A DNA stretch of 64,000 nucleotides from IMG/VR virus record IMGVR_UViG_2690316068_000002, one strand, 5' to 3'. A model generated the notes under the pieces. The model saw only the letters and a program-made list of their open reading frames with translations. It did no database searches and was not told the origin of the DNA. How positions within the stretch are numbered: position 1 is the first letter of the stretch; the number at the start of each line of letters is the position of its first letter. The position numbers were made by a program, and so were the translations under genes. This DNA comes from a virus (Duplodnaviria; Heunggongvirae; Uroviricota; Caudoviricetes). Positions 3,401-29,081 of this stretch are shown piece after piece.

Positions 3401-5027
3401 TGCCTGCGCCAACTACCCCCATGATCCCTGCTCGCATCAGTTTGAACGCAACCATCGCGGCCACGACCTTACCGAGATTAATTACCAGCTCTTGGTTCTT
3501 TGCTAACCATTGAGCAAGCTGACGCAACCCATCGATTGCCGTCGTTAACCCCGAACCTAAAGAATTGGCAAACGAAATCCCTTCGGCGCTATTCATGATT
3601 GAAGCCAGTTCTTTCATCCCCTTCGATAGAGAATCCAGATATCCGGCCTGACCAACCCGATCAGCAAATAACGTGAATGACGTCTGAAGTTGCGCCAGCG
3701 CACCTGTGTAGGTTTGCATCATGTCTTTCGCTGCGTTCTCATTCTCCGCACGCAGACCAACAAACATCAGAGACAACGCCTGTTTTGCCTCAACCGTACC
3801 GCTGGCAACGGCTTTAGTCAGTTCCCCCATAGTGATGCCTGCGGCGTCTGCCATTGCCTGCATCGCGTTAGGAACGGCTTCACCTAATTGCTGACGTAGC
3901 TCTTCCATTGACACAACGCCCTTACCGGACATCTGCTGAACGGCCACAGCCGCACGTTTCAACAGCTCACTATCACCACCAAAACGAGCAACGGAGTCCA
4001 CCAGCGCCTTCAGAGAACCATCGGTTGGATCTAAGCCAGCAGAACGAAACTTCACGAAGGAGTCTGTTAACGCCTGCATCGCGAACGGCGCATTTTGAGC
4101 CATGTCTACGATGTACTTCATATCATCAGCGGCAGCCTGGCCCGGGTTGGACTTCTCCTTATTCAACCCTCGAAGCATCACCCGCATACGTTCCATTTCG
4201 GCCGCAGCTTCAACAATAGGCTTCTGCCACCCAAACATGATGTCAGTAACCGTTCTGGCTGCATCTCCGATCTCGCCAAGCAGAAAAATGTTGCCACGAA
4301 GGCCAGAGAACATACCTCCTTCGTTACTTTTACCGCTATGGCCAGAAGCGCCGCTACGCCGCCCGCTACCACCATCGCCACTTCCAGATGTACGAACGCG
4401 TACCGGCTTGCTAATCAGTTGCTGACGTCCGATAACTTCGTCCATCTGCTCACGAACCTTTTTCAGTCCCTCGGCAGCCTGACTCGTTGTGACACCCCAA
4501 TTACTGAGTCGCTTCGTCGTGGTATTAAGGCGCGTATTCATGCCACTCACGGACACAGAGGCTTCTTTGACCTCCGTACCAAAGCGGCTTGCGCTTTTGC
4601 TTGCATAGGTCGCCCAATCAGAGAAATCATTTAGCTCTGATTGCACTTTACGTAATGACGCGGTGAGTTTATCTACTGAAGAAGTTGTCGTATCGACGCG
4701 CTCAATCAGGGCTTTAAGACCAGAATTGAGGCTGGTGATGTTGCCACGCATTTTACGCGTAGCATCTGAAGCAAGCTCAAAACCGGCAGCTACATCCTGT
4801 AGTTTATCTGCCGTAGAATCGAGCTTGCTTTCCAGAACGCCAATGATACGGGCGACCGAACCCAAAGAGCGTTCAAAGGTTTGGATTTTTTGAGCAGGCT
4901 TTGTTACCTGCTCACCAAATCGAGTAAGCAGTTTCCCCGCACGATCGATTGACGCTGTAAACTGTTTGTCTTCCAGCGACAGGATAAACTCTACGTTTTG
5001 TGACATTCCCTTGTCATCCTCTGCCAA
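435..5027 (-). CDS. Tail tape measure protein
   Basis: 1530 aa; long coiled-coil-rich N-terminal half, hydrophobic Gly/Ala-rich membrane-like segment, Gly/Ser-rich C-terminus; sits between chaperone pair and gpM-like gene. Confidence 0.85.
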   Translation of the reverse strand: MAEDDKGMSQNVEFILSLEDKQFTASIDRAGKLLTRFGEQVTKPAQKIQTFERSLGSVARIIGVLESKLDSTADKLQDVAAGFELASDATRKMRGNITSLNSGLKALIERVDTTTSSVDKLTASLRKVQSELNDFSDWATYASKSASRFGTEVKEASVSVSGMNTRLNTTTKRLSNWGVTTSQAAEGLKKVREQMDEVIGRQQLISKPVRVRTSGSGDGGSGRRSGASGHSGKSNEGGMFSGLRGNIFLLGEIGDAARTVTDIMFGWQKPIVEAAAEMERMRVMLRGLNKEKSNPGQAAADDMKYIVDMAQNAPFAMQALTDSFVKFRSAGLDPTDGSLKALVDSVARFGGDSELLKRAAVAVQQMSGKGVVSMEELRQQLGEAVPNAMQAMADAAGITMGELTKAVASGTVEAKQALSLMFVGLRAENENAAKDMMQTYTGALAQLQTSFTLFADRVGQAGYLDSLSKGMKELASIMNSAEGISFANSLGSGLTTAIDGLRQLAQWLAKNQELVINLGKVVAAMVAFKLMRAGIMGVVGAGSQMVSTFATMATAIQTPFNLGATAVTRFNRAARMGLAPIPSLIFAIRGAITGLKGAFAGLTAFIAANPIGAAFTVATVAVAGLITYMTMLRSETSKVVDEIRKIPEAMTAAKRAQMADRAEKLEKQILADQRALKTGDGVNYVSNSAGVITHKESKADIEARLKKNQEEYQKITGTIALGDGAVAKRLAKEAAESQIEKIRAENQIFAATFVKARQEALDKIQKINDDGSLSDDEKNKLLAPLRETVNKSYLEPAQKLVDSLSSRKNATEKQIATLNDQLEKAKKDGNTEQIQKLQGSIRGYQEHLEAVAQELTQAEFERDNAAKTGKGVMSNQGTVLGLGTTDKAAQKALAQYMRNQMDSATYQRTLPDGTPMMDFEGKPIIGPKQLKTQLNLQKASSASSLEKMSDEERAAAIAALTKAREQDAAAAEKAAQRSANASQRAAKKEQAAQQKLAAGYQKALDKADQLMGQMGESSKATVSFDQSLRDTTKSLTDLANAVPNEFITQEMIDKAKKRLEDLKNATPEYREMFNRRNVEQMISTWAPEADSIISAGYTPSREEKVADFEDTYNRNLKALIELRDKASDPKVVALYTKKINQLIAAGNTALIKETGTATQKLALEYENLAEQIESTWTDLFSGLTDVLTDFVINGKMSFSSLSQSILKDITNMVVKSQITLPLMNMLGMGTTAAGSSQSGNLLTGVASAVANQGVRISNTVNGDKSVGEATKETSSSVTGLGQTTQQTTSAIGTATNAIGSWVSGLFNSTEAKDAETKAVKDSIFSMQNLSSVTGALSAAFAMLGANASGSGNKWLNFGATVASGLVSVWAGGGFDGLMSGSSGSTSGFNNLTSSAADGTNGIPAIPKFANGGIFGKDGVIPLRAYQKGGIANSPQLALFGEGDMNEAYVPLPDGRTIPVTLSTDGMSGGGNVLSPVSIEINVHSDGSTTESGDTESIWNNAAQRMKAIALETIAQEKRPGGSLNPNTQRN

Positions 5028-18158: not shown

Positions 18159-18823
18159 ACCAGAGCCTCACCAGCGTTCTCCATTTCATTACCGGTGTTA
18201 ATAGCCTGCTCTTTGATGATGTTTTTTATGGTTTCTGCAACACGATCTGACGCATCGAAAGTTACTTTGAAGCGCATGGTCTGATGTTCCGCCCCCACAC
18301 GTTCGGTTTTCTCTCGTTTGTCGGTATCGACAGGCTCATCACTACCACGAGACAACGCCTCCAGTGCTTCAAGGTCGATTGCCGCCTCTTTTGCTAAAAC
18401 CATCGAGATTTCGTCGTCATACGGGGCGATTTCAGACAGTTGATAGTCAAGTTCTGACTGAATTTCTTCAATGAAGCGTTGCAATGCGATTTGGTCGTCT
18501 TCACCGTATCGCTCGTTGTCCACCAGTGACATCTGTTTAGCTACGACATCGCTAATTTTGCCCACAGAAAGCACCGGAACCGTTGAAATTCCTTGCTCAA
18601 TAGCAGCACGCCAGCGATGTTCGCCGCCGAGGATTTCAAAAAATCCATCTTCAAGTTCACGAGCCAAAATTGGCTTAAAAAAGCCCAATTTTTCGATAGA
18701 ACCTTTCAGTTTTTCAAAATTCTGCGCACCAACCGAATTGGTGTTCCAGGTATTCGGGCGAAGGTTGGCAACATCAACCTGCAAAATCGTGATTTTTACA
18801 TCCATTTTATTGCTACAATCCAC
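18125..18823 (-). CDS. ParB-like nuclease domain protein
   Basis: 232 aa; ParB-box-like ILGGEHRWRAA. Confidence 0.55.
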   Translation of the reverse strand: MDCSNKMDVKITILQVDVANLRPNTWNTNSVGAQNFEKLKGSIEKLGFFKPILARELEDGFFEILGGEHRWRAAIEQGISTVPVLSVGKISDVVAKQMSLVDNERYGEDDQIALQRFIEEIQSELDYQLSEIAPYDDEISMVLAKEAAIDLEALEALSRGSDEPVDTDKREKTERVGAEHQTMRFKVTFDASDRVAETIKNIIKEQAINTGNEMENAGEALVWLVDYYKERM

Positions 18824-18887
18824 TAAGTAATCACTTACTTATTATAATAGCCAAATAACATACAAAAGGCACTAAGGAAAGAGGTTT

Positions 18888-20447
18888 ATGACTGTTCGGA
18901 TTGTATCTAACGCAGTAAATGCGCTTATTTCTGGCGCAGATGACAAGGTAAAGCAACTGGTGCAGCAAATGTTGAGCTACGAAGTCGAGACTGGCGACTG
19001 GAAGGGCACAAGCACGATGTTCAACTGGAGTAAAAACTCGTTCCCTGCTGGCTTTGCCAAGCCTGTAGCGGCGAACTTGAACAAGGCGGGCATCAAATGT
19101 GTTCATATCCGCAAAGACAAAGCCCCGGCGCTTGGTAAACCAAATCCGGCGGTTAACCCATTCCCATACAATCCTGATTATGCGTATCAGGATCAGACTG
19201 TGGAAACACTGGTTCGAGAGGGAATGATGATTGCGCAGATCGCTACTGGTGGCGGGAAATCTAATGTTGCCTGCAAAGCAGCTGCACGTATCGGTCGAAT
19301 GACATTATTTTTAACAACCCGCTCTGTTCTGATGTTTCAAATGGCCGAAAACTTCCAGAGATCCATCGACTACCGCGCCGAAAATGGCGAACCGTGGTTA
19401 AAGGGCCAAAAGGTTGGAGTCATTGGCTCGGGTGAGTTCCAGGTATCACGACATATCAACGTCGCTACAGTTCAAACTCTGGCAAGTTTCCTTGAAGAAC
19501 CACCACGCGATGCAACACCAGATAAAAAGAGCTACCACCTCAAACGTCGGGAGCTAGTGAAACGCTTCCTTTCAAGTGTGTCTCTGCTTATTCTGGAAGA
19601 AGCGCATGAGTCTTCAGGCTCTAATTTCTATGACATTGCCAGATTATGTGTGAACGCAGACTATCGTCTGGCGCTTACGGCCACGCCGTTCATGAAGGAT
19701 TCTACAGAAGCCAACATGCGTCTGATGGCTGTGGCCGGTCGAATTGAAATTAAAGTCACAGAAAAGTACCTGATTGATCGAGGCATTCTGGCAAAACCGT
19801 ACTTCCTTTATCATAAAGTTGCTTACAAGCCAGACGAGGTCAGAATCAAGGCGGAACTTGCCAACAAACACCTTAATTTTAGAGTAGGTATGAGCACAGC
19901 CTACCAAAAGGCTTATCAGTTGGGGATCGTGTATAATTTGGGACGTAACGAGGCCATTGTGCGCGAAGCATTGCTCTATAAGCAACATTCTCTCAATTGC
20001 ATGACTCTGGTTCGTCTTAAACGCCACGGGCAAATCCTGATGGAGATGATGAAAGAGTCCGGCCTTAGAGTTGACTTCATCTATGGGGAATCGAACCAGG
20101 CGACAAGGCAAGCAAAGCTGAACAGTTTAGCGTCTGGAGAAATAGATGTTTTAATAGGCTCGACTATTCTGGATGTCGGTGTTGATGTGCCAAGCGTGGG
20201 CGCGGTCATTCTTGCTGGTGGTGGGAAAGCAGAAGTTGAAATGAGGCAGCGTGTCGGTCGAGGCTTACGAGCCAAGAAGAATCAGGCAAACGTGTGTTTT
20301 ATCACTGATTTCATTGACATTAGCAACAAATACCTGTTGTCTCACTCTTATGAGCGAAAACACATCATCGACACCACACCTGGCTTTGCAGAAGGTGTAT
20401 TGCCTATTGATGGCGCATTCGATTTTGGAGTTCTGAAACGAGATTAG
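18888..20447 (+). CDS. SF2 (DEAD/DEAH-like) helicase
   Basis: 519 aa; Walker A TGGGKS, motif II LEEAH, motif III TATP, motif VI QRVGRGLR. Confidence 0.8.
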   Translation: MTVRIVSNAVNALISGADDKVKQLVQQMLSYEVETGDWKGTSTMFNWSKNSFPAGFAKPVAANLNKAGIKCVHIRKDKAPALGKPNPAVNPFPYNPDYAYQDQTVETLVREGMMIAQIATGGGKSNVACKAAARIGRMTLFLTTRSVLMFQMAENFQRSIDYRAENGEPWLKGQKVGVIGSGEFQVSRHINVATVQTLASFLEEPPRDATPDKKSYHLKRRELVKRFLSSVSLLILEEAHESSGSNFYDIARLCVNADYRLALTATPFMKDSTEANMRLMAVAGRIEIKVTEKYLIDRGILAKPYFLYHKVAYKPDEVRIKAELANKHLNFRVGMSTAYQKAYQLGIVYNLGRNEAIVREALLYKQHSLNCMTLVRLKRHGQILMEMMKESGLRVDFIYGESNQATRQAKLNSLASGEIDVLIGSTILDVGVDVPSVGAVILAGGGKAEVEMRQRVGRGLRAKKNQANVCFITDFIDISNKYLLSHSYERKHIIDTTPGFAEGVLPIDGAFDFGVLKRD

Positions 20448-20449
20448 TT

Positions 20450-20728
20450 ATGAGCGAAAAGAAAACAACTTATTGCCAGGTGGCATTGTCCGATAAGGCC
20501 AATGACAAACTTGGAAAGTTTCAAATGAAACTAAAAGAAAAAAACATCAAAATGTCTAAGGCTGAAGTTATCAATACCATTCTGGAAGCGATGACAATGG
20601 CTGAATTTGACAAAGTTTCATCTGCCGTTGGAGTCTCTGCTAAGGCTCGTGAGAAAATCATGCGCATCTATGAGAACTCTAATATGACAAAGGAAGATTT
20701 AGAGCAAATTCTAAGCAAACTGCCATAA
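20450..20728 (+). CDS. Hypothetical protein
   Basis: 92 aa ORF starting 3 nt after helicase stop. Confidence 0.45.
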   Translation: MSEKKTTYCQVALSDKANDKLGKFQMKLKEKNIKMSKAEVINTILEAMTMAEFDKVSSAVGVSAKAREKIMRIYENSNMTKEDLEQILSKLP

Positions 20729-20982
20729 CATTTCACATTGCCTCCATCCGCCAATTCCAAGATGTGCTTACTTGTAAAAGGAGCACATCAATTGATGTGG
20801 CCTAAAGAATGAATTTAATCAAGACAAACATTGAATGATTAATAGACTACGATAGTGTCCAACAGGGCATTCTCATGTGACATTTGTCACATTTTTAACC
20901 GCATAAGTCTCCGGCTGAAAAAAGTTCTTGATTGGCTGAATGATATTTGTAGGCTTATCAATGTTTAGAGCCGGAGGTGTGA

Positions 20983-21525
20983 ATGGGTGTACTTGACATT
21001 GATAGTAATTACTTAAGTGCAAGGCGAATAAAGGAATGTGTTCATATCTATTGTAAATCAAAGCAGTCTTGTTTAGAAAAGCAGGCGTACCTAACATCGT
21101 CTCAAAAAGGAGAGCACAAACTCATCAAATATAAACTAAAGGCTTCGCGCAAAGATCGTTATGAGCACTATATATACGTAAAGGATATTGAAGGTACCAA
21201 GACAAATTGCGGTATTATCTTTTATCCCTATGATATATCAAGACTGTTCTCCATTATGAAATCCTGTGTCGGCGTAGCTCCAGGTAAATTAGAGTTGCAT
21301 TCAAACTTATACGATTACCCAAATGCTCAAAAACAGATAAACGATAGTACTTCGCCCTATGGATTTTCGTTTCTCTTCAAGAATCATCTCGCATTGAAAG
21401 ATTTCATCGAAAAATACAATGAAGGAATAATATCAGGCGAATTAAATTTCAACAAAATCTGCGGAGATATAAAGAGGGACGACCTTTTAATAGATATTTA
21501 CAATAGAACCCAAGTTAACGTGTAA
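20983..21525 (+). CDS. Hypothetical protein (AT-rich cargo)
   Basis: 180 aa ORF in strongly AT-rich DNA, first of a four-gene plus-strand cassette. Confidence 0.5.
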   Translation: MGVLDIDSNYLSARRIKECVHIYCKSKQSCLEKQAYLTSSQKGEHKLIKYKLKASRKDRYEHYIYVKDIEGTKTNCGIIFYPYDISRLFSIMKSCVGVAPGKLELHSNLYDYPNAQKQINDSTSPYGFSFLFKNHLALKDFIEKYNEGIISGELNFNKICGDIKRDDLLIDIYNRTQVNV

Positions 21526-21552
21526 CCATCCATTAATCATAGCCAGACAAAT

Positions 21553-21972
21553 ATGAAAGTAACAAACCTATTTATTCTAACACTAGCCACATCACTAATT
21601 GGGTGTTCATCTTCATCTATATCTGTTTCAAAGGCAAAGTATGCACCTCAAAGCAGAATATTTAAATATCAAACACCACATGAGTCTAGTCTAACAATAG
21701 TTAGAGACAAAGGCCTGGTTGGTTCTGGATGTAACGCTTCCATATTCATCAATGGAGAAACGGCAGCAAAATTGGAACCTGGTGAAAAAGCAACTTTCTA
21801 TCTTAATGAAGGAGATTGGATCGTTGGGGCATCAATTGAAAGTTCAGGTCTTTGCGCATTTAACCCCTCTAGGATGGAGCGAGAAATAAAACTAAAGCAA
21901 GGCGACGCGAAAACATATCGGGTTTTCACTACCTGGGATGGTACAATGGATATATTGCCAACCACTTTATAA
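21553..21972 (+). CDS. Putative lipoprotein
   Basis: 139 aa; signal peptide with lipobox (LIGC) at residues 15-18. Confidence 0.6.
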   Translation: MKVTNLFILTLATSLIGCSSSSISVSKAKYAPQSRIFKYQTPHESSLTIVRDKGLVGSGCNASIFINGETAAKLEPGEKATFYLNEGDWIVGASIESSGLCAFNPSRMEREIKLKQGDAKTYRVFTTWDGTMDILPTTL

Positions 21973-21979
21973 TGATATG

Positions 21980-22501
21980 ACGACGAAAGACATCACCTAC
22001 GGTGTGCCAGCAGAAGTCTGGCCGCGAGATTACACTAACGTTGAAAAACTACTGATGTTCTGGCGCAGAGAACAAATTCCTGTAAGGGTCACTCTCGAAG
22101 ATGGCCAGGCGTTTTGCATGTACGTTTATGGCCTCATGCCATCTCGTAACAAAGTTGACCTTTGCCCAGCCCCTTTTGACAAAGAAAATCGTATAAGGCT
22201 CCCACTTGAACGCATTAGTACAATTGAATCAGGTGTGGTTGACAGTATCGCTCACGATTTCAAAGGTCGACTAACAGTTCACCCTGATTATGTCGATAAT
22301 CGGCCATCACGCCGCGATTTTTTTGCAATTTGCAACCAAGCCTACAAAGCAAACAAATCTATAAGGGTGTACATGGCGGATGGCCGTGAAATTGAGGGGG
22401 TGTCAGCAGGCGCAGATGCTTGTCAGGTTACACTACGTGTCGAGAACGGTAGAAAAATAGTTGTTTTGTTCGATTGGGTTGAACGAATTTTGCCTTTTTG
22501 A
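21980..22501 (+). CDS. Hypothetical protein
   Basis: ORF-track 21938-22501 overlaps the lipoprotein gene; an internal Met (MTTKDITYG) just after its stop is the likelier start. Confidence 0.45.
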   Translation, partial: TTKDITYGVPAEVWPRDYTNVEKLLMFWRREQIPVRVTLEDGQAFCMYVYGLMPSRNKVDLCPAPFDKENRIRLPLERISTIESGVVDSIAHDFKGRLTVHPDYVDNRPSRRDFFAICNQAYKANKSIRVYMADGREIEGVSAGADACQVTLRVENGRKIVVLFDWVERILPF

Positions 22502-22504
22502 GTT

Positions 22505-22813
22505 ATGAAATCGATATTGTTACCACCATTATTTTTACTTTGCTCAGTTGCGGCAAATGCAATGGACTATAAGCCTGTCATTCAGTCGCTGATGAATGAC
22601 GTGTGCTCAACGTCTCAGAATGTATCAGTTTGCATGTATCAATTTTCGGCAGCCGTAAAAGCAGGAAAAGCGATAGGTGAGAATGTGGAACTGTGTAAGA
22701 AAGTGGCAAATGAAGAACGGGCAATGTTGGATTGCGAATCTAGCGAGTCATCGGCACAGTTCGTTGATGCGCTATTTGACACCAATCGTAAGGCTGTAGA
22801 GTCTGTTCAATAA
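22505..22813 (+). CDS. Putative secreted/periplasmic protein
   Basis: 102 aa; N-terminal signal peptide (MKSILLPPLFLLCSVAANA) and several Cys. Confidence 0.55.
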   Translation: MKSILLPPLFLLCSVAANAMDYKPVIQSLMNDVCSTSQNVSVCMYQFSAAVKAGKAIGENVELCKKVANEERAMLDCESSESSAQFVDALFDTNRKAVESVQ

Positions 22814-23096
22814 ATCTATAAGGTTAATAACCGGCTAAGTCCGGTTATTATTTTTCACATCACTTCTTTATATCTACAAATCAAATAACCTAAATATATA
22901 TAAGGTCTAAAGCCGCAATCGATTATTTATTTAGGGAACACCTTCGACGATCTCGCTTTTATTTCTAGGACTTTCATCCCTGCAAAAAATTTAAAAAAAA
23001 CACTTGCAATCTTTTTTCGCGTATCGATAATTGAACTCGTCGAAAGCGAAGACGCTAACGACAATAAATTTTAAATTTACATAAGGAAAAATTATC

Positions 23097-23747
23097 ATGG
23101 CTAACATTATCATTTCTAAAAAGTCCATCATTGAAGCTGCATCTATTGTATCCGACGAGCTGCGCGAAAAAGCAGATCTGGCAACTCAAACATATAACGA
23201 ACATTATAAAAATGGTACGCACACTAAAGCAGACAAAGCAAATATGCAAGCTGCGACCACTAAACTTGCTTACTTCATCAACAACGTTGTAAACGCTGTA
23301 GAAGACGAAAAATTATGCTCTGTTTTCTACTATGCGATTAAAGCAAGCAAACAAGCGCCAGAAGTATTTTTCCGTGATGCAATGACTAATAGTTATTCTC
23401 TGGAAAAACTGGTTTATCTGGTTAAATCCATTAAAGCTGGTAAATGCGTTTATTCCGTCGCTGATATGTCTGGATCTCGTGTATTCGCTTTAATCGATAT
23501 GATTAACGACGAGATCGACACGTTCACTAATGGCGCTGTTTTCGATTTAATGAATGAAGCTAAAAAAGCGTGCGAAATTAAATTGGACGCTGGCTATACT
23601 CAAGCCAACCAGTTGATCAATCTTTGCGAACGTCTTGGACTTGTTGAAAAAGTCAAAGGAGCTGGGAGCGCGAAAGCTGGTACTCAGCAATATCGCTTCG
23701 TTAAAAATGATTTCTACAATTATTTAGCTGATGCTTTTAAAGCGTAA
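23097..23747 (+). CDS. Hypothetical protein
   Basis: 216 aa ORF after an AT-rich promoter-like region. Confidence 0.5.
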   Translation: MANIIISKKSIIEAASIVSDELREKADLATQTYNEHYKNGTHTKADKANMQAATTKLAYFINNVVNAVEDEKLCSVFYYAIKASKQAPEVFFRDAMTNSYSLEKLVYLVKSIKAGKCVYSVADMSGSRVFALIDMINDEIDTFTNGAVFDLMNEAKKACEIKLDAGYTQANQLINLCERLGLVEKVKGAGSAKAGTQQYRFVKNDFYNYLADAFKA

Positions 23748-23795
23748 TTAATGGAATCAAGCGCCCACAATGGGCGCTTTAAAGGAGCTTTAAAA

Positions 23796-23999
23796 ATGGT
23801 CAGCTATGACAAGATCCGCGCGGAATATCGCGCAAAGTATCGCGCTTATAAACTGGAATTAATCGATGTTTTGATCGCGCAACGCGACCAATTAAATTTT
23901 ACGTTTTCTGATTTGCTTAACAGTAAACGAGATTGTAAGCGTAAACGTGAATATTTACGTTTAAGCGCATTAATCGGAAAACTGCAAAATTCTATTTAA
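23796..23999 (+). CDS. Hypothetical small basic protein
   Basis: ORF-track start at 23751 would place a terminator-type hairpin (agcgcccacaatgggcgct) inside the coding region; internal Met (MVSYDKIR) is more plausible. Confidence 0.35.
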   Translation: MVSYDKIRAEYRAKYRAYKLELIDVLIAQRDQLNFTFSDLLNSKRDCKRKREYLRLSALIGKLQNSI

Positions 24000-24019
24000 T
24001 TTTTTTAAGGAGCTTAATC

Positions 24020-24250
24020 ATGTTTGTTCTTATCGCTGACGTTAACGTCCACAATGAATATTATGTTAATCGCATCGCTGGGATCGCTGGTTACGCTGGG
24101 CGCGCAGTCGAGCTTATAGATGAAACGACGCGCAAAATTGACTTATTGAGCGACCAGGAGCGAAAAAAAGCAGACGTGAACGACGCTGATATTTTTTTAA
24201 TGTTAAAAGCGTTTGTAGAAATGGGATTTAAAATCAGTTTACACAAATAA
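24020..24250 (+). CDS. Hypothetical protein
   Basis: 76 aa ORF followed directly by a hairpin plus T-run. Confidence 0.45.
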   Translation: MFVLIADVNVHNEYYVNRIAGIAGYAGRAVELIDETTRKIDLLSDQERKKADVNDADIFLMLKAFVEMGFKISLHK

Positions 24251-24254
24251 AATC

Positions 24255-24280
24255 GAGCGCCCACTATGGGCGCTTTTTTC
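24255..24280 (+). terminator. Rho-independent terminator (hairpin + T-run)
   Basis: agcgccca-cta-tgggcgct followed by tttttt. Confidence 0.6.
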
Positions 24281-24699
24281 GTTTCCAATACTCCCACCAT
24301 AACGCGCCAATGATGGCGCGTTTTTATTGTCTTTAACTCACTCCAACAACATAAAAATAAGCGCCAAAATAACGCCATAGACGCGCTTTTACATCCTTAC
24401 CAGTACATACCCATTACTTAACACATTAACGCGCTTAAAACGCGTTATATTGCGTTATGGTGTATGGTTAATCATTGGCTTTTATTCTTGCTATGTGATC
24501 CGCGTTTATTTGTCGGTGCGGATCGGCATTTTGTTTTGTTCTGTATCCGCTCGCGTATTATGTGCGCGTGATTTTTCACATAATCACACCACTTAATCAC
24601 GTATGTGATTATGCTACGAAAGAAATCTGGATGTCTCAGGTGACGAAAGTCATCATAATTTTCCCCGCTCACCTGTCCGACAACCGCTGGTTGGATTCC

Positions 24700-28039: not shown

Positions 28040-28920
28040 TAAAATCAGGAGTTGAATAAATACGAAAAAGGAGGCGACACCCCTCCTTCCCTCCCCACTT
28101 ATACATACCTGGCTTCTTCGCTATACATGTTGTGTTTTCTTCGTGTTTTATCTGTCTCAACCTCTCTATAGGCGTTAATGCTCACTCCTTCCAGAACGTT
28201 CTATACGGCGACTATTTCTGTTGGTGAATTGGGTGTGTTGTTTTCTCTGTCGGTGTATGTGGTTTCGTTCGTTTTGCGGTGGTTCTTCTAGGGGGTGTTC
28301 TCGTCGTTTTGGTGATTGTTCTTCTCCATGTATGGAGTAATGGCAGGTGGGCGATTCCTTTCGTTATTGTGTTTGAGTTGTTTGTCTGGAGTGTGTGAAA
28401 GGCTTTTGTAGTTATTCGTGTATTGGGTAATGGCGTTTCCCGTGATTGTTATGCTTCGAGTCTTTTGGGATTGAGAGAATCCTTGCGGTTACAGGCTTCG
28501 TTGGGGTTTCAGTGATTCTGGTGTTTCTTCGCTGTTTGGGGAATGGCGTGTCGTGGGTATCGCGCGTATGAATGTTTTCGGATTGCCTGTGAAAGTTAGG
28601 TTGGTTGTCCGGTAGCCTGGGAAGAAGAGGTGGGTCTTTTCGGTAGCCTGCCATAAAGAGGTTGGTTGTTTTGGGTAATGGCATATGTGTTATTTAGTTG
28701 TTTTGTTATGCCTGAAAATAAGTTGTTTATATGGTTGTGTAACGCAACGGGAGCGATTTTGAGCGTGTGTTTTTGTTGGTAGTGTGTTGGGTCGTCTGTG
28801 GTGAAAATTGGACGCTGTGGCGCTGTCTGCTGCGTAGAATTACGGGTATAAGAAGTGATGTGTGAATACGTCAATTTTTTAGACCAAATCGGGTGAAAGC
28901 GTTGACGTTTCGTTGATCTG
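28040..28920. other. ORF-free, strongly GT-skewed region with loose ~100-bp periodic motifs
   Basis: About 75% G+T on the plus strand over ~0.9 kb; recurring GG(G/A)TAATGGC and GGTAGCCTG...AGAGGTnGGT motifs; no credible ORF on either strand. Confidence 0.6.
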
Positions 28921-29081
28921 TTATTTAGTTGTTTTCTTATTGGTATAAACAACGTTAACCTATTGATATTTAAAGGTGTGATTGCAGGTATGGAAGAAGA
29001 GTAGTGGCGATCAACGGATTCTTATAGAAAAGAATCAAATTGTGACCGCCATTATCAACTGATTGATTAAGCTAATTACAC

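Follow-up and report, generated by a model that had tools for sequence, protein, structure and literature searches.

A FljA-family core gene between exchangeable envelope genes at the distal end of a helicase-led transcription unit in SSU5-type phage-plasmids

The DNA analyzed here is a 64,000-nt stretch, referred to below as the window, of the IMG/VR virus record IMGVR_UViG_2690316068_000002 (Caudoviricetes). Between positions 20983 and 22813 it carries four open reading frames (ORFs), designated ORF1 to ORF4, the third of which encodes a member of the family of the phase-1 flagellin repressor FljA. From its sequence matches, the window is assigned to the SSU5/pHCM2/pLF82-type phage-plasmids (prophages kept as plasmids) of Escherichia coli. 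ORF3 is a fixed core gene of these elements, and the four-gene stretch is the distal, fast-evolving end of a helicase-led transcription unit, composite in its make-up and not a single island. The locus presents a known protein family in a new context, with ordinary prophage envelope cargo beside it. Our reading that ORF3 is a post-transcriptional regulator expressed in the lysogen, combined with exchangeable envelope cargo in a locus of composite origin, is about evenly balanced between being right and being wrong. Phage-plasmids of the SSU5/pHCM2/pMT1 type are common in E. coli, Salmonella Typhi, Klebsiella, Enterobacter and Yersinia pestis and have largely been described as cryptic. Practically every one of these elements carries, in a constant position, a FljA-type regulator that is transcribed in the lysogen and that purifying selection maintains also in hosts lacking a flagellin to repress, which offers a handle that is cheap to test; the envelope genes alone would be usual prophage cargo. 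As the original prediction for this stretch had stated, the four genes are co-oriented; they are separated by 27, 4 and 3 nt.

21977–22501, plus strand: ORF3, 174-amino acid (aa) FljA-family protein (PF03614, "repressor of phase-1 flagellin"; Pfam match and FljA alignment)
21553–21972, plus strand: ORF2, 139-aa predicted lipoprotein precursor (lipobox, Cys18, Ser at +2; predicted beta-sandwich mature part)
22505–22813, plus strand: ORF4, 102-aa precursor of a predicted small periplasmic protein (cleavage between ANA and MDY; C-x8-C ... C-x12-C)
20983–21525, plus strand: ORF1, 180-aa predicted cytoplasmic protein (phrog_31250), a rare element of the locus

ORF3 as a FljA-family core gene

The Pfam profile PF03614 matched ORF3 over its entire length (positions 1–170 of 170) with 283.4 bits (cut-off, 24; E = 7.5e-85), and phrog_1444 matched at 8.9e-101. 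ORF3 was the only one of the four genes to receive a family assignment, and its orthologue in phage SSU5 is annotated as a "putative repressor of phase 1 flagellin". An exhaustive HMMER scan of 1.84 billion cluster representatives (50% identity) yielded just 25 clusters related to ORF3. Cluster P0035, whose source name is "phase 1 flagellin gene repressor FljA [Salmonella enterica]", aligned collinearly with ORF3 from end to end, with identity at 61 of 171 residues (36%; pairwise E = 2e-37, library E = 2.4e-25). The two proteins are also alike in size (179 aa for FljA and 174 aa for ORF3) and share the motifs PSRRDFF.IC and FDWV.RI. The likely start codon lies at 21977, as called by PGAP and in agreement with the N-termini of the homologues, and not at 21938, where the longest ORF begins.

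In tblastn searches against PLSDB, ORF3 matched 831 plasmids, ORF2 415, ORF4 259 and ORF1 25, and 822 of the 831 ORF3 copies were full length. The 831 plasmids came mainly from Klebsiella (341), Escherichia (229), Enterobacter (92), Yersinia (62, Y. pestis pMT1/pFra) and Salmonella (60). Klebsiella is a non-flagellate host, and four divergent ORF3 alleles are kept intact in this genus. The ratio of nonsynonymous to synonymous substitution rates (dN/dS) of ORF3 was 0.08–0.18, and 0.10–0.15 between the alleles resident in K. pneumoniae. Over larger distances, ORF3 diverged together with the backbone of the element, falling to 55% identity where the helicases shared 82% and to 35% where they shared 71%.

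The assignment of the window to a phage-plasmid follows from its plasmid and phage matches and from its plasmid-only occurrence in E. coli. Window positions 18800–24400 were 100% identical to the E. coli plasmid pRHB31-C19_2 (CP057251.1), and the region matched 776 PLSDB plasmids, 746 of which are typed as non-mobilizable. Phage SSU5, phage Cyrano (pLF82) and SSU5-like Klebsiella phages were matched as well. The four-gene stretch occurred in 118 of 5,426 complete E. coli genomes (about 2%), and all 121 matches were plasmid-borne, none being chromosomal. Both the homology to SSU5, pLF82/Cyrano and pMT1, which is collinear, and the carriage on non-mobilizable plasmids of about 110 kb are as expected of phage-plasmids. 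Upstream of the four genes lie two genes of the same transcription unit, which are divergent from ParB-like genes:

18888–20447, plus strand: DEAD/DEAH (UvsW-like) helicase gene, heading the rightward transcription unit that ends with the four-gene stretch
20450–20728, plus strand: small phrog_1466 gene, the second gene of this unit

A conserved phrog_1513 gene is the downstream neighbor. The order helicase, phrog_1466, a variable slot, FljA-like gene, secreted-protein gene (present or absent) and phrog_1513 was shared by SSU5, Cyrano, Y. pestis pFra, K. pneumoniae pKPHS1, pTHO-010-2, pSTEC388_1 and a divergent Klebsiella lineage.

Among E. coli phage-plasmid variants, the helicase and the phrog_1513 product were 97–99% identical, whereas ORF3 was only 79% identical; the synonymous divergence (dS) of ORF3 was 0.85–1.25, as against 0.08–0.29 for the flanks. 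Since ORF3 is divergent inside near-identical flanks, distinct ORF3 alleles are evidently exchanged by recombination. When window positions 20450–22501 were compared with the related loci L002, L013 and L014, the phrog_1466 gene and the FljA-like gene were both found as divergent alleles (dS, 0.57–1.25) within near-identical flanks (dS, 0.07–0.29), a pattern that resembles phage immunity or specificity regions.

Transcription of the FljA-like gene in the lysogenic state is indicated by the expression of its orthologue in Cyrano, for which RNA-seq values of strain LF82 are available as log2(fpkm+5) (PMC9928086, S1 Table). CYRAN_114, the ORF3 orthologue (79% identity), stood at 4.2 in LB overnight culture, at 6.9–7.4 after 1 h and 6 h in medium and at 8.0–8.1 in macrophages, and the adjacent lipoprotein gene CYRAN_115 at 4.7–5.0, 7.9–9.2 and 8.7–9.4, respectively (PMC9928086). 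The rise of the two genes in medium and macrophages corresponds to 8–16-fold. The helicase orthologue CYRAN_118 and the phrog_1466 orthologue CYRAN_117, the latter listed as a moron, were also high, most Cyrano genes being near 3–5, and the lytic cycle of Cyrano was concluded to be repressed in macrophages (PMC9928086).

Searches of the PDB by sequence found no solved structure of a FljA-family protein. The C-terminal half of ORF3 gave a sub-threshold match to Hfq/Sm proteins (E = 8.5e-4; 19.3 bits, cut-off 27), and in hhalign the N-terminal half weakly resembled the C-terminal one (E = 2e-4, probability 46%), which hints that the FljA family may consist of two Sm-like modules. In a neighbor-joining tree, Salmonella FljA adjoined a phage-plasmid clade as diverse as the whole family. 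This topology is compatible with, and no proof of, FljA being a domesticated phage-plasmid gene. A profile search of genome contigs with the ORF3 alignment returned six loci, all of the phage-plasmid type, the search patterns being too specific. In the searchable literature, we found no paper that ties the FljA homologue of SSU5, pHCM2 or pMT1 to any function.

Envelope genes, base composition and mosaic structure

The original prediction had described the four genes as an AT-rich cassette, suggested to be of recent acquisition and encoding two envelope-targeted, moron-like products. The stretch is indeed low in GC (40.2%, as against 46.4% for the window), ranking in the lowest 4.8% of same-size windows, but it is not uniform: ORF1 has 35.0% GC, ORF2 38.8% (27% at third codon positions), ORF4 42.4% and ORF3 45.7%, which equals the window average. 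The low-GC tract extends from 20450 to 24250 (38.7%) and takes in the family-conserved phrog_1466 and phrog_1513 genes; because it covers core genes, it does not delimit a four-gene island. Recent acquisition as one cassette is contradicted by ORF3, which as a core gene keeps its position in 831 plasmids, has average GC and shows a dN/dS of about 0.1. Nor does recent acquisition hold for ORF2, which is old within the phage-plasmid family, occurring in SSU5, in pHCM2-type, pMT1/pFra and Enterobacter plasmids and in 415 records altogether. The recent or patchy additions are limited to ORF1 and, less markedly, ORF4. The envelope targeting of two products passed rule-based checks and is conserved in homologues, whereas the FljA identity of ORF3 had been overlooked. 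The variable slots, the clean insertion or deletion of ORF4, the rarity of ORF1 and, in part, the variable presence of ORF2 are moron-like traits, from which the core gene ORF3 departs; a promoter-like module and a terminator-like hairpin bracket the unit.

ORF2 begins with MKVTNLFILTLATSLIGC. Its lipobox, ILTLATSLIGC, places the cysteine at position 18 and fits the PS51257 rule [LVI][ASTVI][GAS]C, with a lysine at position 2 and no acidic residue among the first 20. Cys18, Cys60 and Cys101 were invariant in eight homologues of 45–96% identity, one of which matched Pfam LPAM_1 at 4.5e-05. The product is very probably exported as a lipoprotein and, going by the E. coli sorting rule for serine at +2, would be placed in the outer membrane. 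A generic transthyretin/Ig-like beta-sandwich of about 120 aa with the conserved pair Cys60–Cys101 is predicted for the mature part, and the gene has a dN/dS of 0.1–0.17. DUF2846 (PF11008) is likewise a lipoprotein family with a single beta-sandwich domain; three of eight ORF2-family members matched it weakly (best E = 0.0027, below the Pfam threshold), whereas the window copy was unmatched. To our knowledge, DUF2846 has no known function, and the link therefore explains nothing for ORF2. PGAP shortens the gene to 21715–21972 in CP057251.1, giving an 85-aa product that lacks the signal peptide; the full-length form is supported by conservation of the signal peptide.

The N-terminus of ORF4 reads MKSILLPPLFLLCSVAANA followed by MDY. 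Rule-based inspection identified a signal peptide with Lys2, a hydrophobic core of Kyte–Doolittle (KD) value 2.56 and A-x-A at positions 17–19, to be cleaved between AANA and MDY. In the ORF4 family (eight homologues), A-x-A or S-x-A is kept, as are four cysteines in the mature part. The product is very probably exported as a Sec substrate, and its mature form is predicted to be a three-helix fold with a disulfide-stapled helical hairpin. The older annotation of pKPHS1 shortens an intact ORF4 homologue to 59 aa. ORF1 has a strong GGAGG ribosome-binding site and was found in 25 plasmids (full length in 18), and its homologues fell into six clusters among 5.8 billion proteins. An export signal was seen by the rule-based check in neither ORF1 nor ORF3. 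Searches of PADLOC, Pfam, NCBIfam and PHROGs yielded no functional label beyond "lipoprotein" for ORF1, ORF2 and ORF4; PADLOC had no match for any of the four genes, and ORF1 had none in Pfam, NCBIfam or PDB either. Searches of the PDB with single sequences and profiles of ORF1 to ORF4 returned nothing or chance matches at E above 0.1.

The non-coding elements and the exchanged block of the locus are as follows:

20830–20956, plus strand: promoter-like module of about 127 nt, recognized by its conservation upstream of different accessory genes
20876–20891, no strand assigned: perfect CRP-core-like dyad TGTGA-N6-TCACA, its sole occurrence in the 64-kb window
20699–21702, plus strand: block spanning the intergenic region, all of ORF1 and ~150 nt at the 5′ end of ORF2, replaced relative to the commonest E. 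coli variant
22825–22858, plus strand: intrinsic-terminator-like hairpin (22825–22850; 10-bp stem, 6-nt loop) followed by TTTTT, closing the transcription unit

The promoter-like module contains the dyad, the invariant sequence CCGGCTGAAAAAAG, a −35-like TTGATT (20928–20933), a 16-nt spacer and a weak −10-like TAGGCT (20950–20955), and is followed by the ribosome-binding site of ORF1. Six E. coli and Klebsiella variants had it, with the TTGATT and TAGGCT hexamers invariant. Column identity was 71–77% among Cyrano, pSTEC388_1, L011 and two Klebsiella plasmids, in which different accessory genes follow. Copies lie at 4545–4705 in L002, 5100–5260 in L011, 3045–3205 in L014, 1290–1456 in L016 and 119–291 in L017. 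A consensus promoter scanner made no call here because the −10 element is weak. The dyad is expected 0.11 times by chance, and 11 of 100 shuffled sequences contained at least one; it is perfect in L002, L011, L016 and L017, and in Klebsiella a symmetric change preserves it (TGTGAT...ATCACA). The module looks like a putative activator-dependent promoter for which CRP is the obvious candidate, or the dyad could be an operator for a protein of the phage-plasmid or a small hairpin. Directly upstream of the dyad, the copies from Klebsiella and Cyrano carry a hairpin that shows compensatory changes. The commonest variant lacks the module, and its lipoprotein gene begins 26 nt after phrog_1466.

Exchange was evident at both variable positions. 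ORF4 is an exact single-gene insertion or deletion, window position 22499 being joined directly to 22811 in the SSU5, pFra and Kluyvera loci, and the intergenic region 22811–23140 is kept in relatives that lack the gene. On the left, a blastn comparison of the window with L013 showed homology solely at 20300–20698 and 21703–23200, and 81 E. coli records, which represent the commonest form, matched just positions 721–1831 of the four-gene query (21703–22813), so that the right-hand recombination joint of the replaced block falls inside ORF2 at about 21703. Short repeats flanking ORF1 were considered as insertion scars and rejected as probably due to chance. The slot between phrog_1466 and the FljA-like gene is occupied by an inverted lipoprotein homologue (30% identity) in pKPHS1, by an unrelated 266-aa lipoprotein in Cyrano and by a membrane protein in the divergent Klebsiella lineage. 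On the 3′ side of the FljA-like gene, pSTEC388_1 and L004 encode other small secreted proteins with the same cysteine pattern. Insertion sequences were also observed, namely, in pSMKP03L, an IS630-family element that separates the promoter module from the FljA-like gene (L017, 539–1573) and IS1541 near the accessory region of Y. pestis pFra (L005, 7622–8080).

Proposed function and alternative explanations

We propose that ORF3 forms the fixed center of the locus, with an exchangeable gene on either side, the upstream one for a DUF2846-like lipoprotein of the outer membrane and the downstream one for a small periplasmic protein stapled by disulfides. In the present lineage, the rare ORF1 would have been brought in together with the conserved promoter-like module bearing the CRP-type dyad. 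By analogy with FljA and FljA-z66, ORF3 would bind the leader of an mRNA and block its translation. Considering that four divergent alleles are under purifying selection in non-flagellate Klebsiella, the target should be present in every host. That one of the phage-plasmid's own transcripts is most likely this primary target is speculative, and we place it a little short of an even prospect. Conditional silencing of the host flagellin gene fliC in flagellated hosts would be an additional or alternative activity, likewise speculative, plausible but less likely than not; the two targets are not mutually exclusive. The products of ORF2 and ORF4 would act as surface or periplasm modifiers expressed in the lysogen, for which phage exclusion is just a generic prior.

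The closest characterized systems differ from ORF3 mainly in their setting. Salmonella FljA is co-transcribed with an alternative flagellin gene beside an invertase, and ORF3 is neither; ORF3 is instead a fixed core gene of phage-plasmids that is kept in non-flagellate hosts. FljA-z66, encoded on the linear plasmid pBSSB1 of S. Typhi, resembles ORF3 as a FljA-family protein on an extrachromosomal element. It blocks translation of the chromosomal fliC in trans, and a pBSSB1 derivative without its flagellin gene makes motile E. coli non-motile (PMC2652032). Unlike ORF3, both FljA-z66 and the fljA-like repressors of E. coli are encoded directly downstream of a flagellin gene. They share 67–98% identity with FljA or the E. 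coli repressors (PMC2652032), whereas ORF3 belongs to a separate and more diverse phage-plasmid clade.

Several observations weigh against the interpretation of ORF3 as a lysogen-expressed RNA regulator. RNA binding by phage-plasmid members of the family is drawn from homology, and ORF3 lacks a linked flagellin gene, unlike every characterized FljA locus: tblastn with the conserved FliC N-terminus found no match in the window at E up to 10, and neither flagellin nor invertase genes were annotated among the neighbors in eight variants. A mimic of the E. coli fliC 5′ leader was sought in the window and only chance-level matches were obtained (best, 24.3 bits; maximum in shuffled sequences, 26.3 bits), a result that neither supports a self-target mimic nor bars another RNA target. 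The promoter module is deduced from conservation, and the expression values come from an orthologue of 79% identity, next to which a lipoprotein gene unrelated to ORF2 is found on the opposite strand. The label "transcriptional regulator" in Pfam and in annotations reflects an older view of FljA; action by DNA binding is possible. With regard to host fliC as the target, ORF3 is conserved in Klebsiella and in Y. pestis, and flagella are formed in laboratory culture by two carriers, LF82 (Cyrano) and S. Typhi CT18 (pHCM2).

These last points bear most directly on the main rival, flagellin-silencing lysogenic conversion, in which ORF3 would bind the fliC 5′ leader in an E. coli lysogen and stop flagellin synthesis, perhaps only under inducing conditions such as those inside macrophages, with the envelope proteins as co-expressed accessories. 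Such silencing would remove the receptor of flagellotropic phages, lower detection by TLR5/NLRC4 and save energy. ORF3 is a full-length homologue of FljA, all characterized members of the family repress fliC post-transcriptionally and do so across genera, most host genera are flagellated, and the 8–16-fold rise of CYRAN_114 in medium and macrophages would fit. The non-motile phenotype conferred on E. coli by a pBSSB1 derivative that retains only the repressor points the same way (PMC2652032). However, purifying selection keeps the gene intact in Klebsiella (341 plasmids, four divergent alleles) and in Y. pestis; moreover, ORF3 is unlinked to an alternative flagellin gene and only 36% identical to FljA, and the flagellated state of LF82 and CT18 stands against it. 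We therefore regard this explanation as doubtful.

A recently acquired AT-rich moron island, whose lipoprotein and secreted protein mask a receptor or inhibit DNA entry and thereby block superinfection, was the reading suggested originally, and we consider it unlikely. In its favor are the exported appearance of both products, the variable slots, the clean presence or absence of ORF4, the rarity of ORF1, the low GC of ORF1 and ORF2, and the promoter-like module and terminator at the two ends of the stretch; in addition, the same-slot lipoprotein gene of Cyrano is expressed in the lysogen, and Ser at +2 predicts the outer membrane for ORF2, as for the exclusion lipoproteins Llp and Cor. Against this, ORF3 is a core gene of average GC, ORF2 is old in the family (SSU5, pMT1; 415 plasmids), the low-GC tract spans core genes too and the dN/dS of ORF2 (0.1–0.17) shows at the whole-gene level no sign of an arms race. 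Among the known exclusion proteins, Llp and Cor belong to the lipoproteins of the outer membrane, and Spackle is small, helical and periplasmic; Llp of T5, Cor of phi80 and N15, Spackle and Imm of T4 and SieA of P22 are, like ORF2 and ORF4, small, exported, prophage-encoded, variable and moron-like. Nevertheless, ORF2 and ORF4 had no sequence similarity to superinfection-exclusion or defence proteins (Llp, Cor, Sie, Imm and Spackle among them), fold searches gave no Llp-, Cor- or Spackle-like match and PADLOC no match at all. ORF2 differs from these proteins in being a transthyretin/Ig-like sandwich, and the twin-cysteine hairpin of ORF4 resembles the small Tim proteins only generically. Classical morons, a term said to have been defined by Hendrix and co-workers with lambda bor and lom as examples, are matched best by ORF4, a single-gene insertion of lower GC between conserved genes with a terminator just 3′ of it; transcription of slot genes in the lysogen of a relative would be a further likeness. 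The unit as a whole differs from them, since ORF3 is core and the genes of the commonest variant come after the helicase operon with no promoter module to themselves.

It is very unlikely that ORF1, ORF2 and ORF4 are neutral passengers hitch-hiking in a recombination hot spot, with ORF3 kept through an essential operon. The heavy turnover of the slots, including the IS630 insertion in L017, and the lack of a recognizable function for these three genes would suit this explanation, but purifying selection was found wherever it could be measured (dN/dS, 0.08–0.18 for ORF2 and ORF3 and 0.38 for ORF4), signal peptides and cysteines are conserved, and ORF3 is full length in 822 of its 831 copies.

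Returning to ORF3 as a post-transcriptional regulator, a wider version of the proposal would hold that PF03614 proteins are ancestrally regulators of this kind in SSU5-type phage-plasmids, possibly with tandem Sm-like RNA-binding domains, and that Salmonella FljA is a domesticated copy. In the lysogen, they would act on a phage-plasmid transcript and in this way on maintenance or the lysis–lysogeny decision, and in flagellated hosts flagellin would be silenced conditionally, e.g. inside macrophages. We would sooner expect this version to fail than to hold. The DNA invertase Hin, which drives flagellar phase variation in Salmonella, is related to phage DNA invertases, and domestication of FljA would fit this kinship. 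Were the wider version true, carriage of pHCM2-, pLF82- or pMT1-type elements would alter the immune visibility of the host. Conditional silencing of flagellin would mean that carriage has consequences for motility, for how sensitive the host is to flagellotropic phages and for its recognition by innate immunity; if the element itself is regulated, ORF3 would represent a new kind of phage-plasmid control protein and hint at the origin of the Salmonella phase-variation repressor.

Further observations on the window and related contigs

Beyond the terminator-like hairpin that closes the four-gene stretch, strong terminator-like hairpins are clustered at 24255–24322 and 24496–24568, where the plus-strand unit meets minus-strand genes; one of them (24255–24275) is bidirectional. 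In the region, 16 terminator-like sites were counted where 6.1 are expected.

Two contigs from metagenome-assembled genomes (MAGs) hold SSU5-type segments, namely L011 (JAEWTL010000044.1, "Bacillota bacterium") and L012 (DALYYK010000001.1, "Candidatus Fimivivens"), in which the helicase shares 82–93% aa identity with that of the window. Their MAG assignment is probably the result of mis-binned enterobacterial phage-plasmid DNA. Annotation problems were noted at window positions 21715–21972 and 23751–23999 and at 4526–4834 of L006. A 67–82-aa protein of phrog_6145 is called "MIT family metal ion transporter CorA" in SSU5 and in PHROGs, a label that is implausible because the protein is too small.

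A scan of the whole window, including positions 28200–29000, found no Rfam family. The latter region of about 800 nt is free of long ORFs and extremely asymmetric between the strands, with a GC skew of +0.40 to +0.54 and an AT skew of −0.4 to −0.62. TRF reported no array here; the repeats present are short and dispersed, namely three copies of TGTWTKGRGTAATGGC, a 31-nt tandem pair at 28610–28671 and a 25-nt pair at 28685 and 28916. The region may be an origin with iterons or a packaging region of the phage-plasmid.

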